Source of the DNA: Fidelibacterota bacterium
Lineage (GTDB): Bacteria; Fidelibacterota; Marinisomatia; Marinisomatales; S15-B10
Assembly: GCA_002729175.1 (NCBI GenBank)
Contig: PBTS01000072.1
Span: 1-26,288 of the forward strand
Direction: 5' to 3'
Length of the DNA: 26,288 bases
Shown here: piece by piece, positions 1,252 to 25,917 of the stretch
Layout: every line of letters starts with the position of its first letter
Position numbering within the stretch: the first letter of the stretch is position 1
Position numbers and translations under genes: made by a program
The notes under the pieces: model-generated
What the model saw: only the letters and a program-made list of their open reading frames with translations
Databases searched by the model: none
Told to the model about the DNA's origin: nothing

Positions 1252-4200
1252 GTGATGAGACAGGATAAGAACAGGTTTATTCTCGCTCTTATATTAGCGG
1301 CTTTTGGCTGCGACAGCACACCGGAAGTAGCCATCGACACACCGGCTCCGGCTGACACTGTGGCTGAAGCTGTACCTATCACACTCACCGCTACCGATAA
1401 CGACTCTGTCACTTTTGTGGAGCTTTGGGTAGACGGTGATTCCACCGGCCTTACGGACGACTCAGAACCTTTCTCTTTCCGATGGAACACTGTCGACTAC
1501 GGGAACATCTCCGCTCACAATCTCGTGGCCTACGCCGTTGATATCGACGGCAACCGCGGCAAGAGCGACACTGTTACCATCACTGTGGATAACCGCCAGT
1601 CATATCCAGAGCCCAAATCGGTAGATAGCACCGCCTTTATGAACGGCCGATATACTCTTAACTGGGTATTAGCCGCAGATAATGATTTTGCTTCCTACCG
1701 TATCGAGAAGTCAGATGATCCGAAGATGGCTGAAGCCCAGGTGATCACTACCTTCGAAAACAGGAACACAACCACCTTTACCGATAGTAACATGGATCCG
1801 TTGCAACACCATTATTATCGTGTTGTTGTTATTGACACCCTTGGTTTTGAGTCTCCCGGGCCTATTCACCGTTCGGACCTCTATCCACCACCTCTTCCTG
1901 CTAATGTCACCGCTGTCACCTACGACTATGACGCCATGACAGTGGAGTGGACCCCCAGCAACGGCGAAAACTTTGAGCAGTACACGCTTTTTACCGCCTC
2001 TTCCGAAGTAGGTTCCAGAAGAGCAGTGGCCACTTATGATGATCCCACCGTCACCACTCATATTCTGGATAATTTCGATCCCACCCGGGAAAACTGGTTC
2101 TGGGTTGTTACTCGGAACATTTATGATCAGACCACCCAAGGTGAAGGGATCACTCACACTCCCGATCCGCCTCCTGCGACTCTGGCTGTCACATCGGTGA
2201 AATATAACCTGAAGAAAATGATCATTAATTGGGAGAAAACGCCTGATGAAGATTTCAGAGTCTATGAACTGCTCCACAGTGAAACTGAGGACGGAATCAG
2301 GACATTGGTTGCTACTGTCGAAGATCCCGAAATAACCAGCCACACACTCACTGATTTTGATCCCACCTATGAGAACTGGTTCTGGGTCCGGGTCACCGAT
2401 CACTGGAGGCTCAGATCCATTGGGAATGCCATGACACATGAACCGGATAAGCCGCCAAGACCTATTGCCGTCAGGTCCGTCAGCTACGACCTTGAGAAGA
2501 TGACCGTAAAGTGGCAACGATCCAGAGAGAAAGATTTCCTTGCTTACGAGGTCCTCCATTCGGACAGCGAGATGGGGGAGAAGCAGCTGCTGGAGATTAT
2601 CACTAATCCCAAAACAACCACCTATCGGTGGAAAGATTTTGATCCCACCCATGAGAACTGGTTCTGGATCCGAGTTACCGATCACTGGGGCCTTACCTAT
2701 AAGGGGTCGGGCAAGACTCATGAGATCGACCCACCACCGGTCTCCGTGGATGTGGACTCTGTCTGGTACAATGAACAAATAATGACCGTTACTTGGGGCA
2801 TTTCCGAGGAAGCTGACTTCGCTTACTACGAACTATTCACTTCCGACATCGAATATGGTAATCGTCGGCCTGTAGTGAAGATTGGTGACATTAACCGGAC
2901 CAGTTATATCTTCCGTCATTTCGATCCCACGAAAGAGAACTGGTTCACTGTGGACGTGGTGGACAAGTGGGGACTCAGATCAACCGGTCGGGCCAGGACC
3001 AACGAAGCAAACGAACCGCCTGAGCCCATCCGCATCATCTCCGTCGATTATAATTTTGAACAGTTCAACATTACTTGGCGAAAAACTGCCCAAGCCGATT
3101 TTTCTTTTTATGATCTTCTTGTCTCCACCGAACGGGATGGTAAGCAGAAGCGGCTAGTGACACTTACCTCAGTGGAGGATACAGCGTACACTATTAACGG
3201 TAGGGGTGTGTTTGACCCCACCCGGAAGCACTGGTTCTGGATCCGTACCGGGGACACCTGGGGGCAAGAGGTGACAGGTCCCGGCTATCGGGTTTTGGAT
3301 GATCCTCCGCTCATGTCTTATCTCCAACCTGTGGAATACCGCAAGGACCAGTTCATTTTCACCTGGGCTGCCAACGGCGAGGATGACTTCAGCCGTTACA
3401 ACCTATATGAATCAGCTAAACCTGAAATGCTTGATGAAACTATAATCTTTACAACCGTAGACAGGATAGACACCACATTTGTTCTTCAAGGGATCGACCC
3501 TTGGGAAGCCCACTACTATCGTCTTGAAGTGGAAGATGTCTGGGGGCTTCGAACAACCGACGAGATCCGTAAAGGTGATTCGGAGAGCTGGTTTATTGCA
3601 ACCCATGGTGACGTGCACCATGAAGAGGGACGTTCGGTCCAGGAAACTGCCGACGGTGGGTTCATCGTTGCTGGTCACGCCTACGCCAATGAGGACAACG
3701 GTGACATTTGGCTCGTAAAGACCGATCCCAAAGGCAATATCGACTGGACTCAAACCTACGGTGGCGACGGCGACGACCATGCCTATTCAGTTCAAGTCAC
3801 AGCAGATGGCGGCTATGTTGTGGCCGGTTTTTCTGAGGCCATTGCCGAAAAGTGGAGCGACGCCTGGGTAATCAAGACTGATAACGAAGGGCGCGTAGAG
3901 TGGAACCGGACCTACGGCGGTTTTCGTTGGGATAAAGCACACCACATTCGTCAGACTACTGACGGCGGTTACATCATCACAGGTTATACCTTTTCGCGCG
4001 GTAGCGATAATGCTGATATCTGGCTCATCAAGGCCGATGCCAGCGGTTATCCGGTCTGGACAAACACTTTCGGCGGCCCCGACTGGGAGTATGGCTATGC
4101 GGTCCAAGAGACTGCTGACGGAGGTTATATTATTTCAGGATTCACAGAGACAGAAGAGAAGAAATCAAGTCGCATCTGGTTGGTGAAGACCGATAGTCAG

Positions 4201-4734
4201 GGCCAGGAGCAGTGGACAAGAACATTCGGGAGCCGAAAGCACAACACCGGCCACTTTGTTCAGGAGACTGCCGACGGCGGTTACATTGTTGTAGGTATCA
4301 CTCAGTCGTTCTTCCCCAATTTTGAAGATGTTTTGCTTATTAAGACCGATGCTGTCGGCGAAACTCTCTGGGAAAAGACCTTCGGTGGGCAGAGCTGGGA
4401 CCGGTGCCATACTGTCCGGCAAACCGATGACGGCGGTTACATCCTGGCCGGTTCCAGCCGTCTCAAAGAAGAGAGTAATGCCGACGCCTGGCTCCTGAAG
4501 ACAGATGCCGTTGGCAATCCCCTTTGGAAGCAGACTTTTGAGAGTATATCCAGTGATGAGATCACCTCTCTCCAAATCACCTCAGACGGCGGGTTCGTTC
4601 TGGCAGGATCCAGTGCATCCATGGATGGCAGCCCCGCCGATTTACTTTTGATCAAAACTGATGCTCGCGGCACAACACCATCCCGGCCGGAAGAGGCTCT
4701 CCACCGCCTCGGTGCTGTGTTAGAAAGAGAGTAA
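1252..4734 (+). CDS. Large modular lipoprotein: Ig-like (Big) domain, seven FN3-like repeats, seven-repeat DGG[YF] beta-propeller
   Basis: 1160-aa ORF with lipobox LAAFG-C. Bacterial Ig-like segment (ATDND..V..VELWVDG...PFSFRWNT...LVAYAVD.DGN), then ~94-aa repeats and ~52-aa T-x-DGG[YF]...W-L-x-K-T-D-x-x-G repeats. Confidence 0.85.
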   Translation: MMRQDKNRFILALILAAFGCDSTPEVAIDTPAPADTVAEAVPITLTATDNDSVTFVELWVDGDSTGLTDDSEPFSFRWNTVDYGNISAHNLVAYAVDIDGNRGKSDTVTITVDNRQSYPEPKSVDSTAFMNGRYTLNWVLAADNDFASYRIEKSDDPKMAEAQVITTFENRNTTTFTDSNMDPLQHHYYRVVVIDTLGFESPGPIHRSDLYPPPLPANVTAVTYDYDAMTVEWTPSNGENFEQYTLFTASSEVGSRRAVATYDDPTVTTHILDNFDPTRENWFWVVTRNIYDQTTQGEGITHTPDPPPATLAVTSVKYNLKKMIINWEKTPDEDFRVYELLHSETEDGIRTLVATVEDPEITSHTLTDFDPTYENWFWVRVTDHWRLRSIGNAMTHEPDKPPRPIAVRSVSYDLEKMTVKWQRSREKDFLAYEVLHSDSEMGEKQLLEIITNPKTTTYRWKDFDPTHENWFWIRVTDHWGLTYKGSGKTHEIDPPPVSVDVDSVWYNEQIMTVTWGISEEADFAYYELFTSDIEYGNRRPVVKIGDINRTSYIFRHFDPTKENWFTVDVVDKWGLRSTGRARTNEANEPPEPIRIISVDYNFEQFNITWRKTAQADFSFYDLLVSTERDGKQKRLVTLTSVEDTAYTINGRGVFDPTRKHWFWIRTGDTWGQEVTGPGYRVLDDPPLMSYLQPVEYRKDQFIFTWAANGEDDFSRYNLYESAKPEMLDETIIFTTVDRIDTTFVLQGIDPWEAHYYRLEVEDVWGLRTTDEIRKGDSESWFIATHGDVHHEEGRSVQETADGGFIVAGHAYANEDNGDIWLVKTDPKGNIDWTQTYGGDGDDHAYSVQVTADGGYVVAGFSEAIAEKWSDAWVIKTDNEGRVEWNRTYGGFRWDKAHHIRQTTDGGYIITGYTFSRGSDNADIWLIKADASGYPVWTNTFGGPDWEYGYAVQETADGGYIISGFTETEEKKSSRIWLVKTDSQGQEQWTRTFGSRKHNTGHFVQETADGGYIVVGITQSFFPNFEDVLLIKTDAVGETLWEKTFGGQSWDRCHTVRQTDDGGYILAGSSRLKEESNADAWLLKTDAVGNPLWKQTFESISSDEITSLQITSDGGFVLAGSSASMDGSPADLLLIKTDARGTTPSRPEEALHRLGAVLERE
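1600..3580 (+). repeat. Seven in-frame FN3-like tandem domain repeats, period 282 nt
   Basis: [FMI]DP anchor codons at 1792, 2074, 2356, 2638, 2920, 3211, 3493 (spacings 282, 282, 282, 282, 291, 282). Recurrent FDPT.ENWFW.RV.D.W motif. Array boundaries are approximate. Confidence 0.85.
3589..4671 (+). repeat. Seven in-frame ~52-aa repeats, probable 7-bladed beta-propeller
   Basis: [QR]-x-T-x-DGG units start at 3640, 3793, 3949, 4105, 4261, 4417, 4573 (153 then 156 nt spacing). Confidence 0.85.
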
Positions 4735-4792: not shown

Positions 4793-5968
4793 ATGAAAAA
4801 GACAGCTGATGTAATTATCATAGGTGGTGGCATCATGGGGTGTAGTAGCGCCTACCAGCTTAGTAAAGCCGGTGTGAAAGTTACCCTGCTGGAAAAGAGG
4901 TATGTAGGAGACGGTCCTACAGGCAAATCGTCTGCTATCATCCGGCAGCACTACTCCCATAAAATCACTGCCAGCATGGCATTCCATAGCCTGAAAATAT
5001 TTCACAATTTCAAGGATGAGGTGGGAGACGAATGCGGATTTAATCATACAGGATTTCTCAATGTGGTGAGTAAGAAAGACCTAGAAGGCCTCAAGCTTAA
5101 CGTACAACTCCAGCAATCTCTCGGTATCAACACTAAGGTTATATCAGGTGAGGAAATTGCTGAAGTGATGCCTGGTCTGGTAACCAATGATCCTTTGTAT
5201 GCTGCTTACGAACCTGACGGCGGTTATGCAGATGCTTATTTGACTGTTGGCGCTTACGCCCGAGCGGCAAAAAAGCTGGGTGCCGAGATAGTTCAGAAGG
5301 CGGAAGTGACAGCCATCCGGCGGTCAGGTGATAAAGTTGTGGGTGTCGATTCATCAAAGGGTCAGTTTGATGCACCTGTCATTCTTAGCGCCACCGGAGC
5401 TTGGGCCAAAGGGGTGGGTCAAATGGTTGATCTGGATCTTCCCATTAATTCCTGCAGAGTTCAGGTGGCCTATTTCCACCGCCCAGGGGATATGAAAGGT
5501 TATCATCCTGTTGTTACTGATTTTGTGAAGGCCATTTATTTCCGGCCCGAAGGGACGGATCTTACTGTTGCCGGTCTCGTCGATCCAGCGGAAGCAAATG
5601 TCGTTGTCGATCCGGACGAATACGACGAAGGTGTGAATCTCGATTTTGTCACTGAGGTTGGCGAAAAAATCATGTACCGCTATCCGGATATGGAAAAGTC
5701 AGAAAGCCGGGGCGGTTACGCCTCTCTCTATGCCGTCACCCCTGATTGGCACGCCATCGTTGATGAACTACCTCAAGGGAGCGGTTACTATGTCTGTTCA
5801 GGTTTCAGCGGCCACGGTTTCAAACTGGGACCAGCGGTGGGCCTTATGGTAGCCGATTTCATTACAGGAAATTCCACACCGAAATTTGACCACACCCTTT
5901 TCAGATTTTCCCGTTTTGAAGAAAAGAACACGATGGAAGGTAGATACCAATACAGCATAGCGGGGTGA
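4793..5968 (+). CDS. FAD-dependent oxidoreductase, DAO family (sarcosine oxidase beta / amino-acid oxidase-like)
   Basis: N-terminal ADVIIIGGGIMG dinucleotide fold, TGKSSAIIRQHY, TPDWH, C-terminal GFSGHGFKLGPAVG. GAGG RBS upstream. Confidence 0.88.
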   Translation: MKKTADVIIIGGGIMGCSSAYQLSKAGVKVTLLEKRYVGDGPTGKSSAIIRQHYSHKITASMAFHSLKIFHNFKDEVGDECGFNHTGFLNVVSKKDLEGLKLNVQLQQSLGINTKVISGEEIAEVMPGLVTNDPLYAAYEPDGGYADAYLTVGAYARAAKKLGAEIVQKAEVTAIRRSGDKVVGVDSSKGQFDAPVILSATGAWAKGVGQMVDLDLPINSCRVQVAYFHRPGDMKGYHPVVTDFVKAIYFRPEGTDLTVAGLVDPAEANVVVDPDEYDEGVNLDFVTEVGEKIMYRYPDMEKSESRGGYASLYAVTPDWHAIVDELPQGSGYYVCSGFSGHGFKLGPAVGLMVADFITGNSTPKFDHTLFRFSRFEEKNTMEGRYQYSIAG

Positions 5969-5995
5969 TCAGAAACTTGAGACTGGAGAAAAGCA

Positions 5996-7087
5996 ATGAG
6001 AAGCGACAGAAGAACATTTCTTAAAACCGCTACGTTTGGAGCGGCCGGTGTTGCTCTGGGGAATTCCTTGACAATGGGTCAGGGAAAGCGAACTGTGGAC
6101 AAGTTATACGAGGGAGCTATTGTTATTGATTCCCTTTCGGTAGGGCGTCAATGGGGGGAAGTGGCATACTCCGCAGTTAAGGAATCCGGTTACACGGGGA
6201 TTCAGACCAGTCTTCACAACCGAACATGGGACGGTGCCCTGAAAGATATTGCGGAATGGAATGATAGAATTTCTGAGAACCCTAACCTTTTTTTCAAAGC
6301 TACTACTGCTAATCATTTCCGTCAGGGAAAGAAGGAAAATAAACTAGCGGTCATGTATGGACACCAGAATACCACAATGATTGAAAATAAAATTAACCGT
6401 CTTGATATTCTTCATGACTTGGGTACCCGCTGTATCCAGCTCACTTATAATTCACGAAACTTGGTTGGTGATGGATGTACTGAACGAACCAACGCCGGTC
6501 TTTCCGATTTTGGGGTGGATGTTGTTAAACGCATGAATGAACTGGGTATTATTGTTGACCTTTCACACTGTGGAAAACAGACCTCATATGACGGTATACA
6601 GTTTTCTGAGCCACCTGCATGCTTCACGCATACTATGTGTGAATCTATCTATAGGAACCATCCCAGAGCCAAAACGGATAACCAAATCCGGACGATGGCG
6701 GATAAAGGGGGCGTCATGGGAGTGGCTGCACTGGGGTATTTCGTAGGTCCCGACCCTGGTGGGAAAACCACCATTGAAACATATCTTGATCATGTGGACC
6801 ATGCGGTGAAGGTTGGTGGCATTGACCACGTTGCGCTTTGTACTGATTTTCCTATTCAGGGGATAAAAGTGTGGGCAACCAAAGAAACCTGGTACGAGCC
6901 AAGGCTCAAATCGTTCAAACCTTCCTACAACGTAAAGTGGCCTCCTTGGATACCTGATCTGGATAAACCTGGAAGATTCCGGAGTGTGGCTCACGGTCTC
7001 AGTAAACGCGGCTATTCCGATGATAAAATAGAAAAAATACTTGGACTTAACTGGTTGCGCTATTTTGATACCGTTTTGGAGGGTTAA
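5996..7087 (+). CDS. Membrane dipeptidase family (peptidase M19) protein with Tat signal
   Basis: DRRTFLK twin-arginine signal. QLTYN.RN..GDGC.E, GLS.FG...V..MN.LG.IVDLSH, THT, HPRAK.D, G.DHV...TDF and EKILG.NW motifs. Confidence 0.88.
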   Translation: MRSDRRTFLKTATFGAAGVALGNSLTMGQGKRTVDKLYEGAIVIDSLSVGRQWGEVAYSAVKESGYTGIQTSLHNRTWDGALKDIAEWNDRISENPNLFFKATTANHFRQGKKENKLAVMYGHQNTTMIENKINRLDILHDLGTRCIQLTYNSRNLVGDGCTERTNAGLSDFGVDVVKRMNELGIIVDLSHCGKQTSYDGIQFSEPPACFTHTMCESIYRNHPRAKTDNQIRTMADKGGVMGVAALGYFVGPDPGGKTTIETYLDHVDHAVKVGGIDHVALCTDFPIQGIKVWATKETWYEPRLKSFKPSYNVKWPPWIPDLDKPGRFRSVAHGLSKRGYSDDKIEKILGLNWLRYFDTVLEG

Positions 7088-7122
7088 TGCAGATAGTAAC
7101 GAAAAAATTGAAGAAATAAACT

Positions 7123-8292
7123 ATGTTGTCTATATCCCGTTGTAATAACGTAAATGATCTCAGGTCTCTTGCAAAACGCCGTTTACCCCGGTCCATGTTT
7201 CATTATATTGATGGTGGAGCGGATGATGAGGTGACTCTCCGGCGAAACACGGATGCTTTTGAAGACTATGAGATTCAACCTCGCTTCCTCAGGCCGGTAG
7301 ATGAGATTGACACAACTGTCACACTCTTCGGCAAAAAACTCGATATCCCATTCTTCATCGCACCCACCGGCATGTCGAGGCTTTTCCATCACACCAAGGA
7401 AAATGCGGTAGCCCGTGCCGCCGCCAAGTTTGGAACGGCGTACAGCCTGTCAACACTTGGAACCGCCAGTCTTGAGGAAATTTCTGAGGAGACAGATGGG
7501 CCGAAAATGTTCCAGATCTATATCCTGAAAGACAGGGAACTCACCCGGGAGTTTGTGGAGCGGTGCAAGGCCGCAAACTATGACGCCCTCTGCCTCACTG
7601 TAGATGTCCCTCTTGCTGGGAACCGGGAAAGGGACAAAGTGACTGGCATGACCATGCCGCCGCGGTTTACGATGAAGAGTTTCTTCAGTTTTTTTTCACA
7701 CCCGAACTGGTCATTCAACTTCTTGCTTCATCCCGATTTCCGTCTGGCCAATGTGGTCCACCGGGTTGATGCCCTGGGCAAAGGTGCTATGGGCCTCATA
7801 GAATATGTGAATAGTCAATTTGATAGGACAGTCACCTGGGACGATGCTTCCCGGCTCATTCAACAGTGGGGGGGGCCTTTTGTCATTAAGGGGGTACTTA
7901 CTTCCGAAGATGCAAAACGGGCCCGGGAGATCGGCGCCACAGCGCTCATGATTTCCAACCACGGCGGCCGCCAGATGGACGGTGTCCCGGCAGCCATAGA
8001 TTGTTTAGCACCCATAAGGGATGCTGTTGGAAGTGACATGGAACTGATTCTGGACGGCGGCATCCGCCGCGGAACTCATATGCTGAAGGCATTGGCATTG
8101 GGAGCAAATGCTGTTTCTATCGGTAAGGCCTATCTCTACGGACTTGCCGCCGGAGGGCAAAAAGGGGTAGAACTGGTACTTCAGATACTAAAGGATGAAC
8201 TGGAACGTGACATGGCACTTATGGGATGCGGAACAATTCAGGAATTATCTAAAGAATTTGTAAAACGCCGATACAATAGAAGTATTCCATGA
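7123..8292 (+). CDS. lldD: FMN-dependent alpha-hydroxy-acid dehydrogenase/oxidase (L-lactate dehydrogenase-like)
   Basis: AKRRLP..F.YIDGGA.DE.TLRRN, APTG, LTVD, SNHGGRQ.D and DGGIRRG motifs. Exact substrate not determinable from sequence. Confidence 0.85.
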   Translation: MLSISRCNNVNDLRSLAKRRLPRSMFHYIDGGADDEVTLRRNTDAFEDYEIQPRFLRPVDEIDTTVTLFGKKLDIPFFIAPTGMSRLFHHTKENAVARAAAKFGTAYSLSTLGTASLEEISEETDGPKMFQIYILKDRELTREFVERCKAANYDALCLTVDVPLAGNRERDKVTGMTMPPRFTMKSFFSFFSHPNWSFNFLLHPDFRLANVVHRVDALGKGAMGLIEYVNSQFDRTVTWDDASRLIQQWGGPFVIKGVLTSEDAKRAREIGATALMISNHGGRQMDGVPAAIDCLAPIRDAVGSDMELILDGGIRRGTHMLKALALGANAVSIGKAYLYGLAAGGQKGVELVLQILKDELERDMALMGCGTIQELSKEFVKRRYNRSIP

Positions 8293-8555
8293 AAGCTATT
8301 ATAGGGCTTTTTCTTACACTCTCAATCATAGTTTCTCAGTCCTCAGCTGACAAGCAGTTTGAGGATATTGCCCAGCTTCCCACTTATTTTGGCGGTTTTT
8401 TGGAGCACTATGCCCTAAGGCAGGAGCTTCAAAAGCGGCGCGGTGCTAAATTTGTGTTGAAAGATTACCATGATGAGGAACTCTCTTTTGGCTCACCACC
8501 TGTCCAGTATGTGCGGGCACTCATGCTGGACGAGCTCATTCCGGCGATAAAATGA
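8289..8555 (+). pseudogene. 88-aa ORF resembling an internally deleted DUF885-family gene (signal peptide and N-terminus fused to extreme C-terminus)
   Basis: Signal peptide plus ADKQFEDIA, directly followed by QLPTYF.G..EH..LR......F.LK.YHD..LSFGSPPV.YVR.LM, which matches my recollection of the DUF885 C-terminus. ATGA overlaps with both neighbours. Confidence 0.65.
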
Positions 8556-9244
8556 TCCATTCGAAACGACTTATGCTTGTCACAATTCCTCGATGGAACT
8601 TAGGAGTATTTATATTACTTGTTTTTTTGGCCATGTTTTTCTATCCGGGTGGTACTTATCGTGATGGTACTACTGAAGGCTATATTTTTTCCCAAAACTT
8701 CTTGAGTGATCTGGGGCGGTGGGCTGTATATAACGGTCAGGAAAATTATTTTTCATCAGTCCTTTTTAGCTTTGCATTTGCTGCGACTGGGCTAGTCTTC
8801 TGCTTCTTTTTTTGGACTCTTCCGTCACTTTATTCAAAGGAAAGAAATATCTATTTGGTTTCAATGATAGGATCGGCCGGCGGTATTCTTGGAGGTATCT
8901 TTATAATGGGCAGTGGTCTTACGCCAGGGGACTTGATGTTAGATCCTCACGTTTTTTTTAGCAATTGGTGTTTCAGATTCTTCCTCATTGCTGCAGTATG
9001 TTATACATTTGTTTTCTTTAGGACTGACACAATGCATACCATATACGGGATGGGCTACGGTCTTTTTGCATTTCTCATAGCTGTTTACATCGGTATCATT
9101 GAATTCGGTCCTTCTATAGAAGAGAGCCTGTCAGCACTTAAGATTCAGGTCGTCTCACAAAAACTGATCTGTCTCACATTCATTCTTGCCGTGGCGTTTC
9201 AGACTTACGGCAATGAAGAGGCCCTTGGAAAGCGGGGCATCTAA
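8552..9244 (+). CDS. Multi-pass membrane protein, possibly DUF998-like
   Basis: About six hydrophobic segments. YPGG....GY.F..NFLSDLG motif near the N-terminus and a His after the third helix (DPHVFF). Family assignment tentative. Confidence 0.65.
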   Translation: MIHSKRLMLVTIPRWNLGVFILLVFLAMFFYPGGTYRDGTTEGYIFSQNFLSDLGRWAVYNGQENYFSSVLFSFAFAATGLVFCFFFWTLPSLYSKERNIYLVSMIGSAGGILGGIFIMGSGLTPGDLMLDPHVFFSNWCFRFFLIAAVCYTFVFFRTDTMHTIYGMGYGLFAFLIAVYIGIIEFGPSIEESLSALKIQVVSQKLICLTFILAVAFQTYGNEEALGKRGI

Positions 9245-9289
9245 CCTTCTTGTCTTATCTTAATTCCATGTCATCTTAAGGATCTGTAG

Positions 9290-10306
9290 ATGAGTTCCCC
9301 TTTAAGGATCGGTCTCATGGGATTCGGCCGTATTGGTCGCAACCTGTTTCGCCTCGGCTATGACAATCCCAACTTTCAGTTTACCGCCATCAGCGATCTG
9401 GGTCAACCGGAAACTCTCAGGTATCTACTGCTCCGTGATTCCGTCCACGGTCCCTTTGATGTGGAAGCTACCGTCAACGACAGTTACCTTGAAGTAGGTG
9501 ATCAAAATGTGAGACTCCTCCCTGGGGGCAAACCTTCGGAGATCCCATGGGATATGATGAACTTGGATGTGGTCATTGATTCCACCGGTGTCACCTGGGC
9601 TGACGAAGAGGTAGAGGCCTATCGCAACCACACCAAACGAACCATTATCACAAATCCGGATGTCACCTCTGTTGACCGCATTGTTGTTCCAGGTGTGAAC
9701 GAATCTGAAATTTCTCAGGATGACAAAATAGTATCGCCGTCTTCCTCCACTACTCAGGTCCTGGCACTCATGCTCAAGATTTTGGATCAGGAATTTGGTG
9801 TTAGGAACGCAATGATGGCCACTGTTCATGCGTACACTTCAGATCAGCCCTTGGCTGACAATACGCGGGTTCGGCGGCGCCGGAGCAGGTCAGCTGTGGA
9901 AAATATCATCCCCAACGAAACACCTTCACCCCGGCTGGTGGAAGCCATGTTCCCTCATCTAAAAGGAAAAGTGAAAGGGATTGCATTCAACGTACCCGTC
10001 CCTGACGGTTCTTGTATTGATCTTACCACGGAGCACGATAAAATGCCCTCTGTTGACAATGTAAATGAAGTTATGAAAATCTGGTCTCAGGGCGACTTAT
10101 CCCATATTGTAGGATATACGGAAGATCCCATCGTTTCCAGCGATGTTATCGGCCGTGGGGAGTCCATGATCTTTGATGCCAAGGCCACCATGATTGCTGC
10201 CGGCAACTTTTTGAAAACAATCTGTTGGTATGATAACGGGTGGGGTTATTCAAAGCGCATTTTAGAGCTAGTAGAAGCCTACAGCGGCCTGGGAGGTGAC
10301 AGTTGA
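9290..10306 (+). CDS. Type I GAPDH-like protein lacking the catalytic cysteine (probable pseudoenzyme)
   Basis: GFGRIGR, DSVHG, TVHAYTSDQ, VPVPDGS, IVSSDVIG and WYDNGWGYS are retained. The active-site motif reads SPSSSTTQVLA instead of SNASCTTNCLA (Ser codon TCC at 9746-9748). Confidence 0.88.
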   Translation: MSSPLRIGLMGFGRIGRNLFRLGYDNPNFQFTAISDLGQPETLRYLLLRDSVHGPFDVEATVNDSYLEVGDQNVRLLPGGKPSEIPWDMMNLDVVIDSTGVTWADEEVEAYRNHTKRTIITNPDVTSVDRIVVPGVNESEISQDDKIVSPSSSTTQVLALMLKILDQEFGVRNAMMATVHAYTSDQPLADNTRVRRRRSRSAVENIIPNETPSPRLVEAMFPHLKGKVKGIAFNVPVPDGSCIDLTTEHDKMPSVDNVNEVMKIWSQGDLSHIVGYTEDPIVSSDVIGRGESMIFDAKATMIAAGNFLKTICWYDNGWGYSKRILELVEAYSGLGGDS

Positions 10307-11316
10307 GAATCGCCATTAACGGTTTTGGCCGTATTGGCCGGTCAGTTTTTCGAATTTTAAACGAACGGTCTGATGTTGAGGTGGTAGCAATTAATGATCT
10401 TTCTGAGCGGGAGGCACTGGTCTATCTGTTAAAGTACGATACTGTCATGGGCCGCTTTCACGACAAAGCGGAACTCACCGATGATATACTTAAAACTTCC
10501 AACCATACAGTTACCCTGCTTTCGGGTCCCGTTCCTGCCCAGCTTCCCTGGGATGACATGGGCATTGATGTGGTCGTGGAAGCTACCGGTGTTTTTAGGC
10601 AGAAGGAACAGTTGGAGAGCCACCTGTCCGCCGGTGCCAGTAGGGTTGTTCTTACCGTCCCTGCCAAAGATGAGATTGATTACACAGTGGTTATCGGTGT
10701 GAATGATGACGATCTGAAGCCTGAGCACAAAATTATTTCCAATGCCAGCTGTACCACCAACTGCCTCGCACCCATGGCCAAGATACTGAATGATGCTTTC
10801 GGAATTGAGACAGGTGTCATTAATACCATCCATGCTTACACCAATGATCAGCGGCTGGCTGATGTCCCCCATAAGGATTGGCGCCGGAGCCGCGCTGCAG
10901 CTGAGAATGTGATCCCTACAACCACAGGTGCTGCACGGGCTGTGGGGATGGTTCTTCCTGAACTTGATGGGAAACTGGACGGGATTGCTATGCGCGTTCC
11001 CGTTCCTGACGGATCAGTGGTTGATCTGGTGGTTCGTTTGAATCAGGATGTTACCGAAGAACGTGTAAAAGAAGCAGTCCGCACCGCTTCTGAGACGGAT
11101 AAGCTGGCGCCTATCTTAGAATACCAGGAAGAACCTGTCGTTTCTACCGATATAATAGGTAATAGCCACTCTTCCATTTTCGACGCACCGTTTACACAGG
11201 TCATTGACGGCTCGCTGGTAAAAACACTCAACTGGTATGACAACGAGTGGGGCTATTCTAACCGCGTCGTGGACCTTATGGATATCCTCGCCAGGTTTGA
11301 CAGCGGCACGACGTGA
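10303..11316 (+). CDS. gap: Type I glyceraldehyde-3-phosphate dehydrogenase
   Basis: INGFGRIGR, SNASCTTNCLAP (Cys codon 10750-10752), HAYTNDQ, IPTTTGAA, RVPVPDGS, WYDNEWGYS. TTG start overlaps the upstream TGA, with GGAGGT RBS at 10292-10297. Confidence 0.95.
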   Translation: MRIAINGFGRIGRSVFRILNERSDVEVVAINDLSEREALVYLLKYDTVMGRFHDKAELTDDILKTSNHTVTLLSGPVPAQLPWDDMGIDVVVEATGVFRQKEQLESHLSAGASRVVLTVPAKDEIDYTVVIGVNDDDLKPEHKIISNASCTTNCLAPMAKILNDAFGIETGVINTIHAYTNDQRLADVPHKDWRRSRAAAENVIPTTTGAARAVGMVLPELDGKLDGIAMRVPVPDGSVVDLVVRLNQDVTEERVKEAVRTASETDKLAPILEYQEEPVVSTDIIGNSHSSIFDAPFTQVIDGSLVKTLNWYDNEWGYSNRVVDLMDILARFDSGTT

Positions 11317-11411
11317 AGGGCGGCCGGAAAGTTGTCCTCGCCATTTTTCTCTTCTGGGCATTTTTTCTTTCTGCTCTCGGCATTTTGCTGAACCGCTACG
11401 ACTGGCTTTAA
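11313..11411 (+). CDS. Candidate 32-aa single-transmembrane small protein (MKGGRKVVLAIFLFWAFFLSALGILLNRYDWL)
   Basis: Read manually. GTG overlaps the gap stop (GTGA). Basic N-terminus, 20 uncharged mostly hydrophobic residues, TAA at 11409-11411; fills the gap before the next gene. Confidence 0.5.
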   Translation: MKGGRKVVLAIFLFWAFFLSALGILLNRYDWL

Positions 11412-11424
11412 CGGTACCTCTTCC

Positions 11425-11988
11425 GTGAAAAAAAGAGTGTTCCATTTTATTGTGCTCCTGCTGCTTGTCGGCTGTGCAGGAGAGCCCACAGTGGTTACCG
11501 AGACCTATCCCAACGGTCAGAAAAAAGAGGAGGGAGGCATTCTCAATGATCGCAGGGAAGGGAATTGGGCATGGTGGTATGCTTCAGGCCAGAAGCGTGG
11601 TGAAGCAATCTACAATAATGGAAAGAAGAACGGGCCCGCTTCTTACTGGTTCAAAAACGGGAATTTAGATCGGAGGGGTGAATTTAGGAAAGATAGGCTT
11701 CATCACGAGTGGATTTTTTGGTATCCCAGCGGCGTGAAACGGTCGGTTGCTACTTACTTAAGAGGCAAGTTTCACGGTCCTTACGGGCGTTGGTATGAAA
11801 ACGGTCAGCAGGAGATGGAGGGACACTACTATCGCGGTGAGCGAACGGGTGAATGGAGTTGGTGGTATGAATTGGGACAACTTCGATCGAGAGGATTTTA
11901 TGAGAGAGGAAAACGGACAGGCAAATGGACCTTTTGGGATACGAAAGGAAAAATGACTCGAGAAATGAATTTCAATCCATCAGATTGA
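11425..11988 (+). CDS. MORN-variant repeat lipoprotein (YwqK-like repeat family)
   Basis: Lipobox LLVG-C. About six 24-aa repeats of the type W-Y-x-[SN]-G-Q-x-x-x-E-G-x-Y-x-x-G-x-x-x-G-x-W. Confidence 0.8.
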   Translation: MKKRVFHFIVLLLLVGCAGEPTVVTETYPNGQKKEEGGILNDRREGNWAWWYASGQKRGEAIYNNGKKNGPASYWFKNGNLDRRGEFRKDRLHHEWIFWYPSGVKRSVATYLRGKFHGPYGRWYENGQQEMEGHYYRGERTGEWSWWYELGQLRSRGFYERGKRTGKWTFWDTKGKMTREMNFNPSD

Positions 11989-12068
11989 CTTCAAACATTG
12001 TCTTTAAGTAACACTACTTATGTCATTTTTCACTACCACCCTTTTTAATATGATAAAGACCCGTAATA

Positions 12069-12704
12069 TTGATTAAACCTGTATCAGTCGGCATTTTCAT
12101 TTATAATGATGTGGAGGTTCTGGATTTCACTGGCCCCTTTGAAGTTTTTTCCACAACACGCAAGCAGGCAGGCGGTGAAGAAAAGTATCTTTATTCTGTT
12201 TGTCTCATCGGGCCCAAAGATGGTGCCATAACGACAAGAGGCGGCATGGAAGTGAAACCCCATTTTTCCATTAGCTCACATCCTCAACTGGACCAGCTTA
12301 TCGTTCCCGGTGGCTATGGCACCCGGCCGCTCATGCACGATGAATCCGTAATTGATTGGATCCGGTCATTCGACCCAAAGAGTACACGTTTGGCATCTGT
12401 CTGTACCGGGAGTTTACTTCTCGCCAGCGCCGGGCACCTTGACGGAAAGCGTGCCACTACTCACTGGACCGTTCTGGACATGATGGAAAAGTCTTTTCCC
12501 GAGGTTCAGGTGGACAGGGATTGTCACGTCATCATTGATGAAACTGTTTTCACTTCGGCTGGAGTCTCCGCCGGCATCGATCTTGCTCTCCAAATGGTCA
12601 GACTCGATTTTGGAGAAGCGCAGGCGGATTGGACCGCTCGCCACATAGAGTACGCTTTCGACAGTGAAAACTTTGAAAGGAGACTGAAGGCGGACAATGG
12701 CTGA
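12069..12704 (+). CDS. DJ-1/PfpI family protein (isonitrile hydratase-like subgroup)
   Basis: VEVLDFTGPFEVF, LIVPGG.G, SVCTGS nucleophile elbow, ATTHW, TSAGVSAGID. TTG start. Confidence 0.88.
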   Translation: MIKPVSVGIFIYNDVEVLDFTGPFEVFSTTRKQAGGEEKYLYSVCLIGPKDGAITTRGGMEVKPHFSISSHPQLDQLIVPGGYGTRPLMHDESVIDWIRSFDPKSTRLASVCTGSLLLASAGHLDGKRATTHWTVLDMMEKSFPEVQVDRDCHVIIDETVFTSAGVSAGIDLALQMVRLDFGEAQADWTARHIEYAFDSENFERRLKADNG

Positions 12705-14150: not shown

Positions 14151-16412
14151 ATGTATAGACAGTATGTTGCACTGCTGATATCATTTTCTCTCATGGGGTG
14201 TTCCACACCTCCATCAGACGCCTCTCCGGCTGCAGCTCCAATGGCCGATGCTATTTCCACTTTGGATGCCGGCTTCGATGCAACGGCTCAGCGGAAATTG
14301 GAGAAACAGTTCGATTCTTATCTCAATCCTGATAATCTCCGGGAGTGGATGAAACATATGTCTTCAAAGCCCCACCATGTAGGTTCACCATGGAGCAAAC
14401 AGAACGCGGAATATATTGCCGCCAAGTTTGAGGAGTGGGGTTATGAAACTGAGATCGAGCAGTTTGATGTTTTGCTCCCCATCCCAAAGGTGAGACTTCT
14501 AGAAATGGTTTCGCCCACCCGATTCACAGCTGAGCTTAAGGAGCCTGTTCTGAAGGAAGATGCCACCTCGTCCGTCATGGAAGATCGTCTCCCCGGATAT
14601 AATGCCTATTCAGCCGACGGTGATGTGACAGCTGAACTGGTTTATGTCAATTACGGTATTCCTGCCGACTATGAAGTCTTGGAACGTCAGGGCATAGATG
14701 TGAAAGGAAAGATTATCATTGCCCGCTATGGAGGTTCCTGGCGTGGAATCAAGCCGAAAGTAGCCTACGAAAAAGGAGCCATTGGCTGTATTATTTTCTC
14801 TGACCCCAGAGATGACGGCTATATGCAAGGCGACGTCTATCCTGAGGGACCGTACAGAATGGAGAACGGTATCCAGCGGGGATCGGTGGTGGACATGCCT
14901 ATGTATCCCGGCGATCCCCTAACTCCGGGCTACGGTGCTGTGGATGGGGCCGAACGTCTCGATTACAAGGAAGCACCCACCATTATGAAAATTCCTGTGC
15001 TTCCCATTTCTTATGCTGACGCCCAGCCACTCCTGGAAGCCATGGAAGGTCCTGTGGCACCGGCCAACTGGCGAGGGGCGCTGCCCATCACTTATCACCT
15101 GGGACCGGGACCTTCAAAAGTGCACCTGAAACTGGAATTTGAATGGAAACTTAGGACAGCTTACAATCCCGTGGGAAGGATGGTTGGAAGCCAGTATCCC
15201 GATGAATGGGTTATGCGAGGGAATCACCATGATGGTTGGGTATTCGGAGCTTCGGATCCCATCAGTGGTATGGTCTCTCTCATGGAAGAGGCACGGGCTG
15301 TGGGTGAACTGGTAGAAACAGGATGGCGACCGAAGCGGACCATCATTTACGCCGGCTGGGATGCGGAAGAGCCGGGTCTTTTAGGTTCCACCGAGTGGGT
15401 GGAACACCACAAGAAGGAACTTAGCGAAAAGATGGTGGCATATATCAATACAGATGCTACCAGTCGGGGATTTCTTGGTATCAGTGGTTCACATACGCTT
15501 GAGAAGTTCGTGAACGAAGTTAGAGAAGAGGTGGATGATCCTTTTGTGGACGCTTCTTTACAGGAGAGGCTTCGAGCGAGGATGATGGTGAGTGGCAGTA
15601 AGTACGCTGACAGGGAAGATCTTCCCATTGGCGCCCTGGGTGCCGGCTCAGACTATACACCTTTTCTTCATCATGCCGGTATTGCCTCACTAAATATGGG
15701 TATGGGGGGCGAGGCCGGCGGTGGTTCTTACCATTCCGTTTACGACTCCTTCGATCACTATACCCGCTTTATGGATCCAACTTTTGAGTATGGTGTGACC
15801 CTTGCAAAATCAACGGGCCGAGTGACACTTCGGCTTGCTGATTCCGATGTGCTGCCATTTCGGTTCACCAATTTTGTGGATCATGTTGCGCAGTATGCAA
15901 AACAGTTGAAAGAGTTTGCGGTAGAGATGAGAGAGAAGACCAAACACAACAACAAACTTGTTGATCAAAATGCCTATTCGCTGGCGGCTCATCCGGATAA
16001 AACTTACGTTCTTCCAAAAAAGCTTGATTCTGTTCCTTTGTTCGATTTTTCACCTATCGACAACGCTCTTGCCCGTTTGAGAGCAAGTGCGAACAGATAT
16101 GAGGTAGCGCTGACGAATAACATCAAAAAGGACGTCCGTCCGTCCGGGGATGAGGCTCAAAACCTTAACCAGATTCTTATGAAAAGTGAACGGGCCATGA
16201 TGAGGGCAGAGGGTCTTCCCCGTCGGGATTGGTTCAAGCACATGATCTATGCACCTGGGTTTTATACCGGTTATGGTGTCAAAACACTTCCTGGTATACG
16301 GGAAGGGCTGGAGGAACGAAAATGGGATGAGGTTAATCTGTTTATCGGTGAAGTGGCGGCAGCACTCAACCGCGTTGCTGACGAGTTGGACAGGGCTACT
16401 TCCCTGCTATAG
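14151..16412 (+). CDS. Peptidase M28B (glutamate carboxypeptidase II / NAALADase-like) lipoprotein with PA and transferrin-receptor-like dimerisation domains
   Basis: Lipobox LMG-C. LVYVNYG, IARYG..WRG.K, GDPLTPG; metal/catalytic motifs GNHHD, SDP, DAEE, INTD, YHS.YD; C-terminal W[FY]KHMIYAPG.YTGY. AAGGAG RBS. Confidence 0.92.
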   Translation: MYRQYVALLISFSLMGCSTPPSDASPAAAPMADAISTLDAGFDATAQRKLEKQFDSYLNPDNLREWMKHMSSKPHHVGSPWSKQNAEYIAAKFEEWGYETEIEQFDVLLPIPKVRLLEMVSPTRFTAELKEPVLKEDATSSVMEDRLPGYNAYSADGDVTAELVYVNYGIPADYEVLERQGIDVKGKIIIARYGGSWRGIKPKVAYEKGAIGCIIFSDPRDDGYMQGDVYPEGPYRMENGIQRGSVVDMPMYPGDPLTPGYGAVDGAERLDYKEAPTIMKIPVLPISYADAQPLLEAMEGPVAPANWRGALPITYHLGPGPSKVHLKLEFEWKLRTAYNPVGRMVGSQYPDEWVMRGNHHDGWVFGASDPISGMVSLMEEARAVGELVETGWRPKRTIIYAGWDAEEPGLLGSTEWVEHHKKELSEKMVAYINTDATSRGFLGISGSHTLEKFVNEVREEVDDPFVDASLQERLRARMMVSGSKYADREDLPIGALGAGSDYTPFLHHAGIASLNMGMGGEAGGGSYHSVYDSFDHYTRFMDPTFEYGVTLAKSTGRVTLRLADSDVLPFRFTNFVDHVAQYAKQLKEFAVEMREKTKHNNKLVDQNAYSLAAHPDKTYVLPKKLDSVPLFDFSPIDNALARLRASANRYEVALTNNIKKDVRPSGDEAQNLNQILMKSERAMMRAEGLPRRDWFKHMIYAPGFYTGYGVKTLPGIREGLEERKWDEVNLFIGEVAAALNRVADELDRATSLL

Positions 16413-16429
16413 TAAAGGAGATCCATATT

Positions 16430-17647
16430 ATGAAAAAAGTGTTTAGAGCACTAGTCTGTTTATTAACTGTTTTCACAGTCAGGGCCGCTAACGACAGGCT
16501 GGCGGTCATAAACGCAAAACTCATCGATGGAGAAAGCGACCGTATCCAGAGCAGTGTCACAGTTCTCATTTCCGATGGGAAAATTGAGTCAGTCAAGCGG
16601 GGTGGTAAAGTACCGAAAGGTTATGAAACTATTGACATTGCCGGAGCAACACTTATGTCCGGTTTCATTGACGCCCATACCCATATCAGGTCTCTTTCTT
16701 CGGCGAAGCGTGCCCTGGAGTCCGGTGTTACTACGGTCCGGAGTGCCAGTACACCCAATTATCAGGATGTCAATATCCGGGAACTGGTGAAATCAGGCGC
16801 CCTCTCTGGTCCCGATATGGTGGCGACCGGTGTGTTTGTGACACCAAATCTCGGCGAAACGGTTCTGGCTGATCCGCGCCTCGCTGCTCTCATGAATGGG
16901 GTCAACAGCGAGGAGGAGCTTCGAATGCTGGTTCGAATCAATGCTGACCGAGGAGTGGACTTTATCAAGACACGGGGCACAGAACGAGCTGGATTGCCCA
17001 ACACTGATCCCCGAAAGCAGACTTATACCCAGGCACAGCTGACCGCAATTGTGGATGAAGCCAGAAAACACAATATCCCGGTTATGGCTCACGCCCATGG
17101 TGATGAAGGAGGTTACGCTGCTGTGGCCGCAGGGGTGAGAAGCATTGAACACGGCACTTATCTCAGCGAAAAAACCCTGAAGTTGATGAAGCAGAAGGGG
17201 ACATATCTTGTTCCCACATTTACAACGGTGGTGGATCTTACCGAACCGGGCGGCGACTACGACAATCCTGTTCTTTTCATTCGTGGTCAACATATGCTGT
17301 CAGCCTTAGAAAAAACATTAAAACGTGCCTATGAAATGGAAATTAAAATTGTTACTGGCGCAGACACCGGATACGGTCCAAACAGCGTCACCCGGGTGGG
17401 AATGGAGATCGCCAACTTCGTGAAGCTGGGGATGAAACCGATGGATGCCATCCGCTCCGCCACAAGCGTCGGTGCGGAGCTGCTACAAATTTCTGACAGA
17501 ACAGGTACTGTGACTGTGGGCAAGGAAGCTGATCTTATTGTGGTTCCTGACAATCCGTTGGAAGACATACGTTCCGTTCAGGATGTGGTGTTGGTCATCA
17601 GTAACGGTGCGATTGCCATGAACCGTCTGCCGTTCAGGAAGGAGTAG
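16430..17647 (+). CDS. Amidohydrolase family protein (Xaa-Pro dipeptidase / imidazolonepropionase-like) with signal peptide
   Basis: GFIDAHTH, GVTTVR, GVDFIK, AHAHG, SIEHG, GADTG, GKEADL. Sec-type N-terminus MKKVFRALVCLLTVFTVRA. AAGGAG RBS. Confidence 0.88.
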   Translation: MKKVFRALVCLLTVFTVRAANDRLAVINAKLIDGESDRIQSSVTVLISDGKIESVKRGGKVPKGYETIDIAGATLMSGFIDAHTHIRSLSSAKRALESGVTTVRSASTPNYQDVNIRELVKSGALSGPDMVATGVFVTPNLGETVLADPRLAALMNGVNSEEELRMLVRINADRGVDFIKTRGTERAGLPNTDPRKQTYTQAQLTAIVDEARKHNIPVMAHAHGDEGGYAAVAAGVRSIEHGTYLSEKTLKLMKQKGTYLVPTFTTVVDLTEPGGDYDNPVLFIRGQHMLSALEKTLKRAYEMEIKIVTGADTGYGPNSVTRVGMEIANFVKLGMKPMDAIRSATSVGAELLQISDRTGTVTVGKEADLIVVPDNPLEDIRSVQDVVLVISNGAIAMNRLPFRKE

Positions 17648-18541
17648 ATGATGAAGTTTCCCCGATACCAGTTAATATTAATCTCTGTGGCAATTGCATT
17701 GTCTTTTCTCCCTGCCACGCCTCAAAAACCGCTGAAGATTTTCATCTCCGTGGATATGGAAGGTATCGGAGGTATTGGGACGAGCGAAATGACACGTCAC
17801 GGCGGAAAGGATTATGAAACCGGCCGCCACCTTATGACAGGAGAGGTAAATTCAGTGGTAGAGGCTATTTTTGAGAATGGCCCCTCAGAGATCTTGGTAA
17901 ATGACTCTCACGGCGATATGCAAAATCTCCTACATCAAGATCTCGATTCGAGAGTCATTTACATTCAGGGAAATATAAAACCGCTTGGCATGGTACAGGG
18001 TCTCGACGCGTCGTTCGATGGTGCGATCTTTTTAGGCTATCATGCCCGCGCCGGCACAGCCCGGGGATTCTTGGCCCACACAGGCTCAGGCTCCGTTAAA
18101 GGACTGTGGCTTAACGGAAAAGAAGTGGGTGAGGGCGGACTTAATGCCCACTATGCAGGGGAACAGGGTGTTCCTGTCATTCTGGCGGCGGGGGATGATG
18201 TATTTACTGACCAGTTCGGTAGACTAGTGAAGTGCGAACTGGTTACCACCAAGACAGCGGAGACTGCTCAGGTCGCCCGGTTAAAACACGGGGAAGTTGT
18301 TCGGAAGGAACTGGCAGAAGCCACCCGAAAAGCACTTAAGAATATTAAAAAGGCCAAACCGTTCAAAGTAAGTAATCCCGTTAAAATAAAAATGAGATTT
18401 TCGAGCACTACTCACGCCGAGGTATTACAAGCCATTCCAGGAATGAAACTTATTGACGGCTTCACGGTGTCTTATGAAGCTAATAATATGCAAGAGGCCT
18501 ATCCTTTTATAAGACTGATGTATAAGTATGTGAAGTCTTAA
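17648..18541 (+). CDS. dppA: Peptidase M55 D-aminopeptidase (DppA family) with N-terminal signal-like extension
   Basis: KIFISVDMEG, VNDSHG.M.N, GYHARAG, LAHT, VGE and GDD motifs. Starts immediately after the previous stop; AAGGAG RBS. Confidence 0.88.
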   Translation: MMKFPRYQLILISVAIALSFLPATPQKPLKIFISVDMEGIGGIGTSEMTRHGGKDYETGRHLMTGEVNSVVEAIFENGPSEILVNDSHGDMQNLLHQDLDSRVIYIQGNIKPLGMVQGLDASFDGAIFLGYHARAGTARGFLAHTGSGSVKGLWLNGKEVGEGGLNAHYAGEQGVPVILAAGDDVFTDQFGRLVKCELVTTKTAETAQVARLKHGEVVRKELAEATRKALKNIKKAKPFKVSNPVKIKMRFSSTTHAEVLQAIPGMKLIDGFTVSYEANNMQEAYPFIRLMYKYVKS

Positions 18542-18551
18542 AAGAGTCTTA

Positions 18552-19883: not shown

Positions 19884-19981
19884 TGGTATTAAGTGATGGC
19901 AACACGATGAAAAAATTGTGGCCTGAAGAGAAGGAGATCGAACCGCTCTGGTGGTGGGACGACGGTCCGGTAGAAAAATGA
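19880..19981 (+). CDS. Candidate 33-aa Trp-rich small ORF or gene remnant (MMVLSDGNTMKKLWPEEKEIEPLWWWDDGPVEK)
   Basis: ATG 19880 overlaps the permease stop (ATGA), and its TGA 19979-19981 overlaps the next ATG (ATGA). Confidence 0.35.
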   Translation: MMVLSDGNTMKKLWPEEKEIEPLWWWDDGPVEK

Positions 19982-20286
19982 GAAAACTCTTTCTCATTGC
20001 TTTTTTGTTCATATTTGTTACCTGTGAGGATGAGGAAGAACCACTCTGCAACATAAAGGTAACACTTGAAGACTATAGCGATCTGGATGGTTGCGGATTT
20101 GTCATAATGTTAGAGGACAGTACTATCCTAGAGATAGGAGATTATGATGAAGAGCCAGACTTTAGTTTCAGAGACGGAATGGCGGTGAATATATCCTACG
20201 AAGAAATGAAAGGTATCGCTACTGCTTGCATGGTAGGTACTATTGTTCGAATTACCTGCATGGAAAAGAATGGGAGTGAAGGCTGA
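19978..20286 (+). CDS. Small acidic lipoprotein of unknown function
   Basis: Start at ATG 19978 preferred over the track's 19951 because it gives a clean signal peptide MRKLFLIAFLFIFVT-C. Four further Cys (PLC, DGCG, ACMVG, ITC). Confidence 0.7.
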   Translation: MRKLFLIAFLFIFVTCEDEEEPLCNIKVTLEDYSDLDGCGFVIMLEDSTILEIGDYDEEPDFSFRDGMAVNISYEEMKGIATACMVGTIVRITCMEKNGSEG

Positions 20287-20304
20287 ACTGATTTTCAGTG
20301 ACGA

Positions 20305-21198: not shown

Positions 21199-21283
21199 AT
21201 TGTCAAATTAGAGTGACTCCCGATTCAATTAATTGTAAGTTACGATTGAGGAATTTTCCCTACCGTCAAGCACCGTAACAATC

Positions 21284-22003: not shown

Positions 22004-22028
22004 GATTGACATACTAAGTTAAGGTACC

Positions 22029-22421: not shown

Positions 22422-22448
22422 TTTTACATAATTGAAAAAGAGGGGATC

Positions 22449-22655: not shown

Positions 22656-22666
22656 CCAATTTCTAC

Positions 22667-24918: not shown

Positions 24919-24928
24919 AGTTGATTCA

Positions 24929-25903: not shown

Positions 25904-25917
25904 GATTGGAGGTAGTT

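Follow-up and report, generated by a model that had tools for sequence, protein, structure and literature searches.

The window analysed here comprises 26,288 nucleotides (nt) of a Fidelibacterota bacterium (assembly GCA_002729175.1, contig PBTS01000072.1, positions 1 to 26,288). The public names of close homologues likewise point to Candidatus Marinimicrobia / Fidelibacterota (SAR406). It carries two adjacent genes of the glyceraldehyde-3-phosphate dehydrogenase (GAPDH) family, which we call A and B in their order on the forward strand (Table 1). A short earlier note, made from the letters alone, had described two full-length type I GAPDH paralogues that overlap by 4 nt, and the open reading frames (ORFs), BLASTP and Pfam bore this out. 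The two proteins share 43% identity over 327 residues (BLASTP, E 2e-92) and both contain the Gp_dh_N and Gp_dh_C domains (Pfam E-values for A of 4e-26 and 9e-45). The note had called the second copy canonical, and it was right in this respect: B exceeds the cut-off of the NCBIfam model TIGR01534 (434.6 bits vs 367.2) and its codons for the catalytic Cys and for Arg231 are present. For A, the score stayed below this equivalog cut-off (298.9 bits vs 367.2). A is not an Epd protein (TIGR01532) either, since its score of 216.6 bits compares with a cut-off of 530.55 and the catalytic Cys is absent. The reading frame of A is intact, with no stop and no frameshift, and the protein ends in ...AYSGLGGDS without a C-terminal extension.

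Table 1. Coordinates of the gene pair and of the features within and next to it (positions of the window)
Feature	Position	Strand	Basis
Gene A, GAPDH-like paralogue, 338 aa, ATG start	9290..10306	+	ORF and translation
Gene B, canonical type I GAPDH, 337 aa, TTG start	10303..11316	+	ORF, TIGR01534
TTGA, start of B (TTG) shared with stop of A (TGA)	10303..10306	+	sequence
AAGGA, possible Shine-Dalgarno sequence of A, 7 nt 5' of ATG	9278..9282	+	sequence reading
GGGAGGTG, Shine-Dalgarno sequence of B within the last A codons, 4 nt 5' of TTG	10291..10298	+	sequence
Ser153 of A, codon TCC, at the place of catalytic Cys149	9746..9748	+	sequence and alignment
Asn234 of A, codon AAC, at the place of substrate-phosphate Arg231	9989..9991	+	sequence
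Cys150 of B, codon TGT	10750-10752	+	sequence
Arg231 of B, codon CGC	10993-10995	+	sequence
Terminator-like hairpin and T run directly 3' of the B stop	11317..11348	+	pattern scan

A promoter scan yielded no convincing sigma-70-like promoter between the upstream gene and A, and the counts were at chance level. Terminator-like sites numbered 5 in the region compared with 3.6 expected by chance, and the hairpin after B is suggestive by its position only. The assembly (1.83 Mb, 87 contigs, 93% complete, 7% contamination) contains two Gp_dh_C matches, which are A and B. B is thus its sole canonical GAPDH, and the A-B pair consequently represents the housekeeping enzyme. In agreement with the note, which had found no pgk or tpi next to the pair, a family profile scan of the window proteins detected neither PGK nor TIM; pgk and tpi are neighbours on a different contig, C39.

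Catalytic residues and selection in the A family

For the active site we use residue numbers (Cys149, His176, Thr179, Thr206, Thr208, Gly209, Arg231, Asp32, Asn313, Glu314, Tyr317) which we take to be those of Geobacillus stearothermophilus GAPDH, and the terms S-loop and P/R axes presumably follow the literature on the same enzyme. The titles of PDB entries confirm only Cys149, Asp32, Leu187, Pro188 and N313 of this numbering. Comparison of the two proteins of the window showed SPSSSTTQVL in A where B has SNASCTTNCL, IPNETPSP instead of IPTTTGAA and FNVPVP instead of MRVPVP. The motifs GFGRIGR, ISDL, HAYT and WYDNGWGY are all kept in A. Thus, the altered and retained motifs that the note had quoted for the first copy are all correct in the sequence and in the alignment.

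To define the residues of the family, we used 113 distinct A ORFs drawn from loci of 40 genomes of the phylum and of 80 species genomes, with some genomes present in both sets. The Cys149 site is occupied by Ser (85), Ala (26) or Thr (2) and never by Cys. It can be seen that Arg231 and Thr206 are both replaced by Asn in 113/113 genes, and that His176 is retained in all of them. Arg231 is present in all B proteins and in all 57 solo GAPDHs compared. A similar pattern was observed among the best 120 database homologues of A (58-97% identity), none of which has Cys149 and all of which read IPN and xN[VI]P. The A alignment has no invariant Cys column. The A copies of loci L122, L131, L132 and L167, which are labelled uncultured Fibrobacteraceae, read S[NG]GSSSCHAL, with Ser at the Cys149 site and a Cys two residues downstream.

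The remaining parts of the active site are affected to different degrees. The GxGxxG motif is kept in 110/110 A proteins, the Asp32 site is occupied by Asp (104) or Glu (7) in 111 proteins, and Asn313 is retained in 103/113. Ser148, Thr150 and Thr179 are invariant like His176, and A also retains the Arg residues of the S-loop end. Asn6 and Glu314 are never kept, Asn31 is replaced by Ser, Asn152, Gly209 (Pi loop, Thr208-Gly209) and Ala210 are not conserved, and the Tyr317 site is occupied by F (68), Y (22), Q (13) or H (10). In 10/110 genes Arg10 of the GxGRxG motif is a Glu. Judged from these residues, A seems to be intact on the adenosine side of the NAD pocket but not on the nicotinamide and substrate sides.

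The alignment of 43 A sequences contains 38 invariant columns and has a mean column identity of 63%, compared with 75% for 41 B partners. For nine pairs with unsaturated synonymous divergence (dS), the ratio of nonsynonymous to synonymous substitution rates (dN/dS, Nei-Gojobori) was 0.037-0.159 for A and 0.020-0.129 for B, and when the window was compared with a relative of the same genus, the values were 0.084 (A) and 0.086 (B). In eight further pairs dS was saturated for A. Three Fibrobacteraceae-labelled pairs were dropped because their values (0.41-0.85) were invalid, the stop-to-stop ORFs having taken in up to about 340 non-coding codons. A is under purifying selection and constitutes a conserved family rather than a decaying copy.

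These data bear on the simplest explanation of a GAPDH paralogue without nucleophile, namely that A is a functionless duplicate and a pseudogene in the making. That A lacks the catalytic Cys and Arg231 and scores below the family cut-off would be expected under this explanation. However, the frame is intact, dN/dS is low, orthologues with 38 invariant columns are spread over numerous families of the phylum and also exist outside it, and the gene is found in the RNA libraries of four studies (see below). We regard this explanation as negligible and refuted by the dN/dS values, the invariant columns and the residue survey of the 113 genes. The earlier note had proposed that the first copy is a selected pseudoenzyme tied to the second, and the loss of Cys, the dN/dS values and the coupling of the genes support this proposal: the orthologues neither retain Cys nor evolve neutrally. 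In its descent from a catalytic family, its loss of catalytic residues and the purifying selection on it, A resembles a pseudoenzyme partner of the prozyme type.

A different explanation for the strong conservation of A would be that it is an active NAD-dependent dehydrogenase that works without a thiol on another substrate in the pathway of B, which would also explain the coupling. Its substrate might, for instance, be an alcohol or a hydrated aldehyde without the C3 phosphate. The invariant His176, Ser148, Thr150 and Thr179, the new Asn206 and Asn231 in all 113 genes, the retained GxGxxG and Asp32 and a purifying selection as strong as that on B are in line with such an enzyme. Moreover, genes for consecutive steps of a pathway are also often translationally coupled. 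On the other hand, Ser, Ala and Thr replace one another at the nucleophile site, which speaks against a substitute nucleophile, residues on the nicotinamide side have changed (Asn6 and Glu314 lost, Tyr317 variable) and the Pi loop is not conserved. In the wider clade the 231 site reads N/K/T/H/S/E and the 149 site N/V/A/P/S/G/C, so that there is no common catalytic set, and no other gene of the pathway is conserved beside the pair. For these reasons we consider a thiol-free enzyme rather unlikely.

Tandem pairs were also present in 9 of 80 metagenome loci. The scan patterns were generic, so that the other 71 loci contained ordinary solo GAPDHs and the scan is uninformative on the frequency of pairs. 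In all nine pairs the divergent copy lies upstream and the downstream copy is canonical (520-636 bits on the profile of partnered B). The upstream copy has lost both Cys and Arg231 in five loci (L151, L156, L167, L180, L218), Arg231 only in L150 and L152, Cys only in L170 and the Pi loop only in L155. Such an uneven loss of residues would fit a relaxed catalytic constraint on a copy that is retained as a partner or for another reason.

Linkage, expression and inheritance of the pair

In 119 of 122 loci B follows directly after A, and the remaining three loci end at a contig edge. The corresponding numbers were 41/42 for loci of the 40 phylum genomes and 78/80 for the species-genome collection. 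Because of this recurrence the arrangement is not due to chance. When we inspected 100 junctions, we found a 4-nt overlap in 58, a 1-nt overlap in 20, a gap of 0-3 nt in 12 and a gap of 15 nt in one. In the remaining nine, a start-codon heuristic chose a wrong start for B, so that the genes seemed to overlap by 11-85 nt and the N-termini were not those of a GAPDH. Thus, 90/100 junctions fall within -4 to +3 nt, and most of the 100 carry GGAGG-like strings at the place of the Shine-Dalgarno sequence of B. The translational coupling that the note had deduced from the window is therefore a conserved property of the pair. A conserved third gene was not found beside it, since the flanks differ among 20 loci and between lineages, and A and B alone form the conserved unit.

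Four loci (L027, L033, L045, L055) have the pair beside genes for a TrmB-family sugar regulator, GH57, CBM48 or alpha-amylase proteins, or pyruvate kinase. Neighbours such as a TrmB-type regulator, a glycogen-related enzyme and pyruvate kinase fit a role in central carbohydrate metabolism. Two genomes carry two A-B pairs each, G067 (L014, L051) and G083 (L006, L050), and the A copy of L051 is far more divergent (196 vs 446 bits) and partly masked. Four proteins were considered as A-B fusions (Rosetta stone). P0325 and P0327 each have one domain of the A type and one of the B type, but they also contain stretches resembling out-of-frame translation and were taken as frameshifted calls. P0163 and P0322 are partial ORFs of one 90% cluster, in which a complete A-type C-terminus continues in frame via 5-7 residues into a B-type N-terminus; they may represent a genuine fusion or an error of gene calling and were given no weight.

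Both genes are covered by contigs from four metatranscriptome runs of four different studies. Two of these contigs bridge the A/B junction, record 19 of X9 (10188-10338) and record 5 of X3 (10267-11643). The stretches that are uncovered in X3, X7 and X9 carry no meaning. A 12.8 kb contig of X1 is near-identical to the window over 8500-12100, with one substitution and one one-base gap.

To explore the inheritance of the pair, we calculated a tree of 135 rows (IQ-TREE quick search, LG+G4, midpoint root) with support values from the Shimodaira-Hasegawa-like approximate likelihood ratio test (SH-aLRT) only. All 29 A rows fall into a clade of 34 rows (SH-aLRT 98) together with four cysteine-less representatives of 50% clusters and P0130. 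A branch with a support of 94 has the A rows, 13/16 cysteine-less representatives, P0130 and the Cys-retaining P0148 on one side. A separate clade (SH-aLRT 97) unites the 29 rows of partnered B and excludes the GAPDHs of 14 relatives without A. The inner groupings of the A clade and of the B clade match, which indicates that the pair was inherited as a unit.

The protein A query matched 134 of the 151 genomes in our sample of the phylum. The 14 single-match genomes that were inspected come from several families, and each of them has one canonical GAPDH with no A within about 2.5 kb. At E <= 1e-20 the same query gave no GAPDH match in seven genomes of 0.8-1.1 Mb (G024, G035, G043, G071, G079, G087, G143). 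These genomes are 95-99% complete and belong to family f3 in the order of the window itself; no family-model search was made of them. The source labels of the wider cysteine-less clusters include Actinomycetota, Planctomycetota and a Gammaproteobacteria metagenome-assembled genome, and three loci are labelled uncultured Fibrobacteraceae (labels as given). In the Protein Atlas, the nearest clusters were the generic GAPDH and E4PDH families, which added nothing.

Modelled assembly and possible function

The AlphaFold2 model of the A monomer (mean predicted local distance difference test, pLDDT, of 89) has the GAPDH fold, and a Foldseek search gave template modelling (TM) scores of 0.87-0.90 to solved GAPDHs. 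A is 36-40% identical to solved GAPDH enzymes. No solved structure of the A type was found, and the best 60 of 140 matches (E <= 1e-30) are all named GAPDH. The only disordered part of the model is the S-loop (183-204), which has a pLDDT below 50 despite its strong conservation, and this would fit a segment that becomes ordered only in the oligomer.

When A and B were modelled as a complex, the interaction prediction score from aligned errors (ipSAE) was 0.71 (0.70, 0.72 and 0.71 in the three runs) compared with 0.00 for the best of three controls. This mark is reached by 116/157 solved complexes and by 2/215 mismatched pairs. At least 96% of the contacts are common to the runs, and the pLDDT of the partner is 91. 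In the model, the interface is formed by the sheet of the catalytic domain together with the S-loop end, and Glu201 and Asn202 are part of it. The interface columns are more conserved than the rest of the protein, in A (0.78 vs 0.62) as well as in B (0.81 vs 0.76). Glu201 is present in 41/41 B proteins and in 93% of A but in none of the 57 solo GAPDHs, and Ser196 and Thr308 are likewise shared by A and B and rare in the solo enzymes (9% and 4%). In the metagenome set, Glu201 was found in 7/9 partnered B compared with 9/71 solo GAPDHs.

The conserved interface and the adenosine site would also be compatible with a free-standing protein. In this case A would form homo-oligomers, serve as a sensor of NAD(H) or of a metabolite or as a moonlighting protein, and be co-expressed but not stably assembled with B. 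The interface could serve A:A contacts as well as A:B contacts, and a eukaryotic precedent exists in TbGAPDHL, a dead GAPDH-like protein which according to the excerpts of PMC4106842 has a non-glycolytic role. However, A never stands apart from B in the 119 testable loci, the stop-start overlap is kept in most junctions, and the partnered B forms its own lineage that shares derived interface residues with A. Constant linkage, overlap and shared interface residues are to be expected of proteins within the same complex more than of an independent regulator, and for us a free-standing A is therefore quite improbable.

We cautiously favour the interpretation that A serves as a non-catalytic partner subunit in a heteromeric GAPDH, being made together with B and assembled with it. 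According to this scenario, A and B would be transcribed together, and ribosomes that end translation of A would restart at the start codon of B, which overlaps the stop of A and has its Shine-Dalgarno sequence inside the A gene. Such a restart would provide A and B chains in matched amounts. A would contact B across the usual dimer interface of GAPDH (sheet of the catalytic domain and S-loop end), and the resulting mixed oligomer would in the simplest case be a tetramer that comprises two A-B dimers. The reaction would then be carried out by the B sites. The A sites would retain the NAD pocket on its adenosine side, but they could neither form a thiohemiacetal (no Cys149) nor hold the C3 phosphate (Arg231 replaced by Asn), and may act as structural or regulatory sites that tune B.

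Several observations weigh against a partner subunit. The RNA-library contigs cannot prove a single A-B transcript, and the X1 contig may be carried-over DNA or may come from the source sample of the window. The A:B model may reflect the likeness to the many solved GAPDH homotetramers, and a model of this kind cannot separate A:B from A:A or B:B. The signature residues shared by A and B lie on a symmetric interface, where they would fit homo-oligomers equally well, and they may simply reflect common ancestry. Binding of NAD by A is not assured given the Glu at position 10 in 10/110 genes and the altered nicotinamide side. Finally, the invariant Ser148, Thr150, His176 and Thr179 and the new invariant Asn206 and Asn231 exceed the needs of a structural subunit and leave room for ligand binding or other chemistry.

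A more far-reaching version of the partner-subunit interpretation, which we put forward tentatively and consider doubtful, concerns the Marinimicrobia and the other mostly uncultured lineages that carry the pair. In these organisms the housekeeping GAPDH might be an obligate A2B2 heterotetramer, in which two of the four sites have been converted to non-catalytic binding of a nucleotide or metabolite and set the cofactor affinity, the cooperativity or the flux direction of the working sites via the S-loop. If this were true, A2B2 would hard-wire the half-of-the-sites behaviour that has long been discussed for homotetrameric GAPDH.

Related systems and neighbouring genes

Few enzymes have been investigated as thoroughly as GAPDH, and its bacterial form is regarded as a homotetramer. 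If the partner-subunit interpretation holds, a two-subunit form would be added to this enzyme. The pair occurs in abundant marine bacteria (SAR406/Marinimicrobia), and related pairs are present in other lineages. In public records A-type genes are named 'type I glyceraldehyde-3-phosphate dehydrogenase', so that gap copy numbers and metabolic reconstructions of these organisms are overstated.

With the type I phosphorylating GAPDH (GapA, EC 1.2.1.12; 1hdg of Thermotoga maritima, 1gd1 of G. stearothermophilus) A shares the two-domain fold, the length, GxGxxG, Asp32, His176 and the ends of the S-loop. It differs by the lack of Cys149, Arg231 and Glu314, by the changed Pi loop, by its score below the family cut-off and by its constant pairing with a canonical copy. 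The chloroplast GapA/GapB enzyme is an A2B2 GAPDH of two paralogous subunits, both of which are catalytic, and its regulation involves the C-terminal extension of GapB. The assembly proposed here would resemble it in having two paralogous subunits of which one brings regulation, but A is catalytically disabled and has no such extension.

Dead partners of active enzymes have been described in trypanosomatids, where according to the excerpts of PMC6221367 AdoMetDC has a catalytically dead paralogue, the prozyme. As proposed for A, a dead paralogue is under selection there as the partner of an active enzyme, but the system concerns another enzyme family, eukaryotes and unlinked genes. TbGAPDHL of the trypanosome paraflagellar rod, as described in the excerpts of PMC4106842, is a GAPDH homologue that resembles A in lacking the catalytic nucleophile and possibly keeping the adenosine site for the cofactor. 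It is eukaryotic, cytoskeletal and, according to that paper, poorly conserved among orthologues; in contrast, conservation of the bacterial A is strong and its gene is coupled to that of an active GAPDH. Engineered G. stearothermophilus GAPDHs with C149A or C149S (PDB 1npt, 1nq5) carry the same Ser or Ala that is found naturally in A, and their entry titles indicate that the thiol-less enzyme still folds and crystallises with NAD+. To judge from these titles, they are laboratory point mutants in which the other residues of the site are intact, whereas A has further conserved changes. Full-text literature searches retrieved no description of a bacterial cysteine-less GAPDH partner, and the excerpts of PMC12041015 mention pseudoenzymes only for Aldh16. 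For the literature searched, the suggestion of the earlier note that the system is undescribed holds. Its nearest parallels are TbGAPDHL, dead paralogues of the prozyme type and the A2B2 enzyme of plants.

The remaining genes of the window are mostly those of peptidases, amidohydrolases and amino-acid transporters. An ORF of 1160 aa (1252-4734, +) has a bacterial Ig domain (Big_7) at its N-terminus, an fn3 domain and little else that was recognised, and it probably encodes a large surface protein. Dense same-strand runs of genes for the use of peptides and amino acids occupy 4793-8292 and 14151-26286, and they include a DAO oxidoreductase, an M19 dipeptidase, an M28/transferrin-receptor-like peptidase, an M55 D-aminopeptidase, amidohydrolases, two amino-acid transporters, an asparaginase and a PLP enzyme. 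Upstream of A, an ORF of 88 aa (8289-8555, +) matches only the last 60 of 532 positions of the DUF885 profile and overlaps each of its neighbours (7123-8292, 8552-9244) by 4 nt. The relative L005 has a far longer DUF885 ORF at the matching position, which runs off the start of the locus. Because of the short match and the longer counterpart, the DUF885 ORF of the window looks like a truncated remnant beside the gene of an FMN-dependent dehydrogenase.

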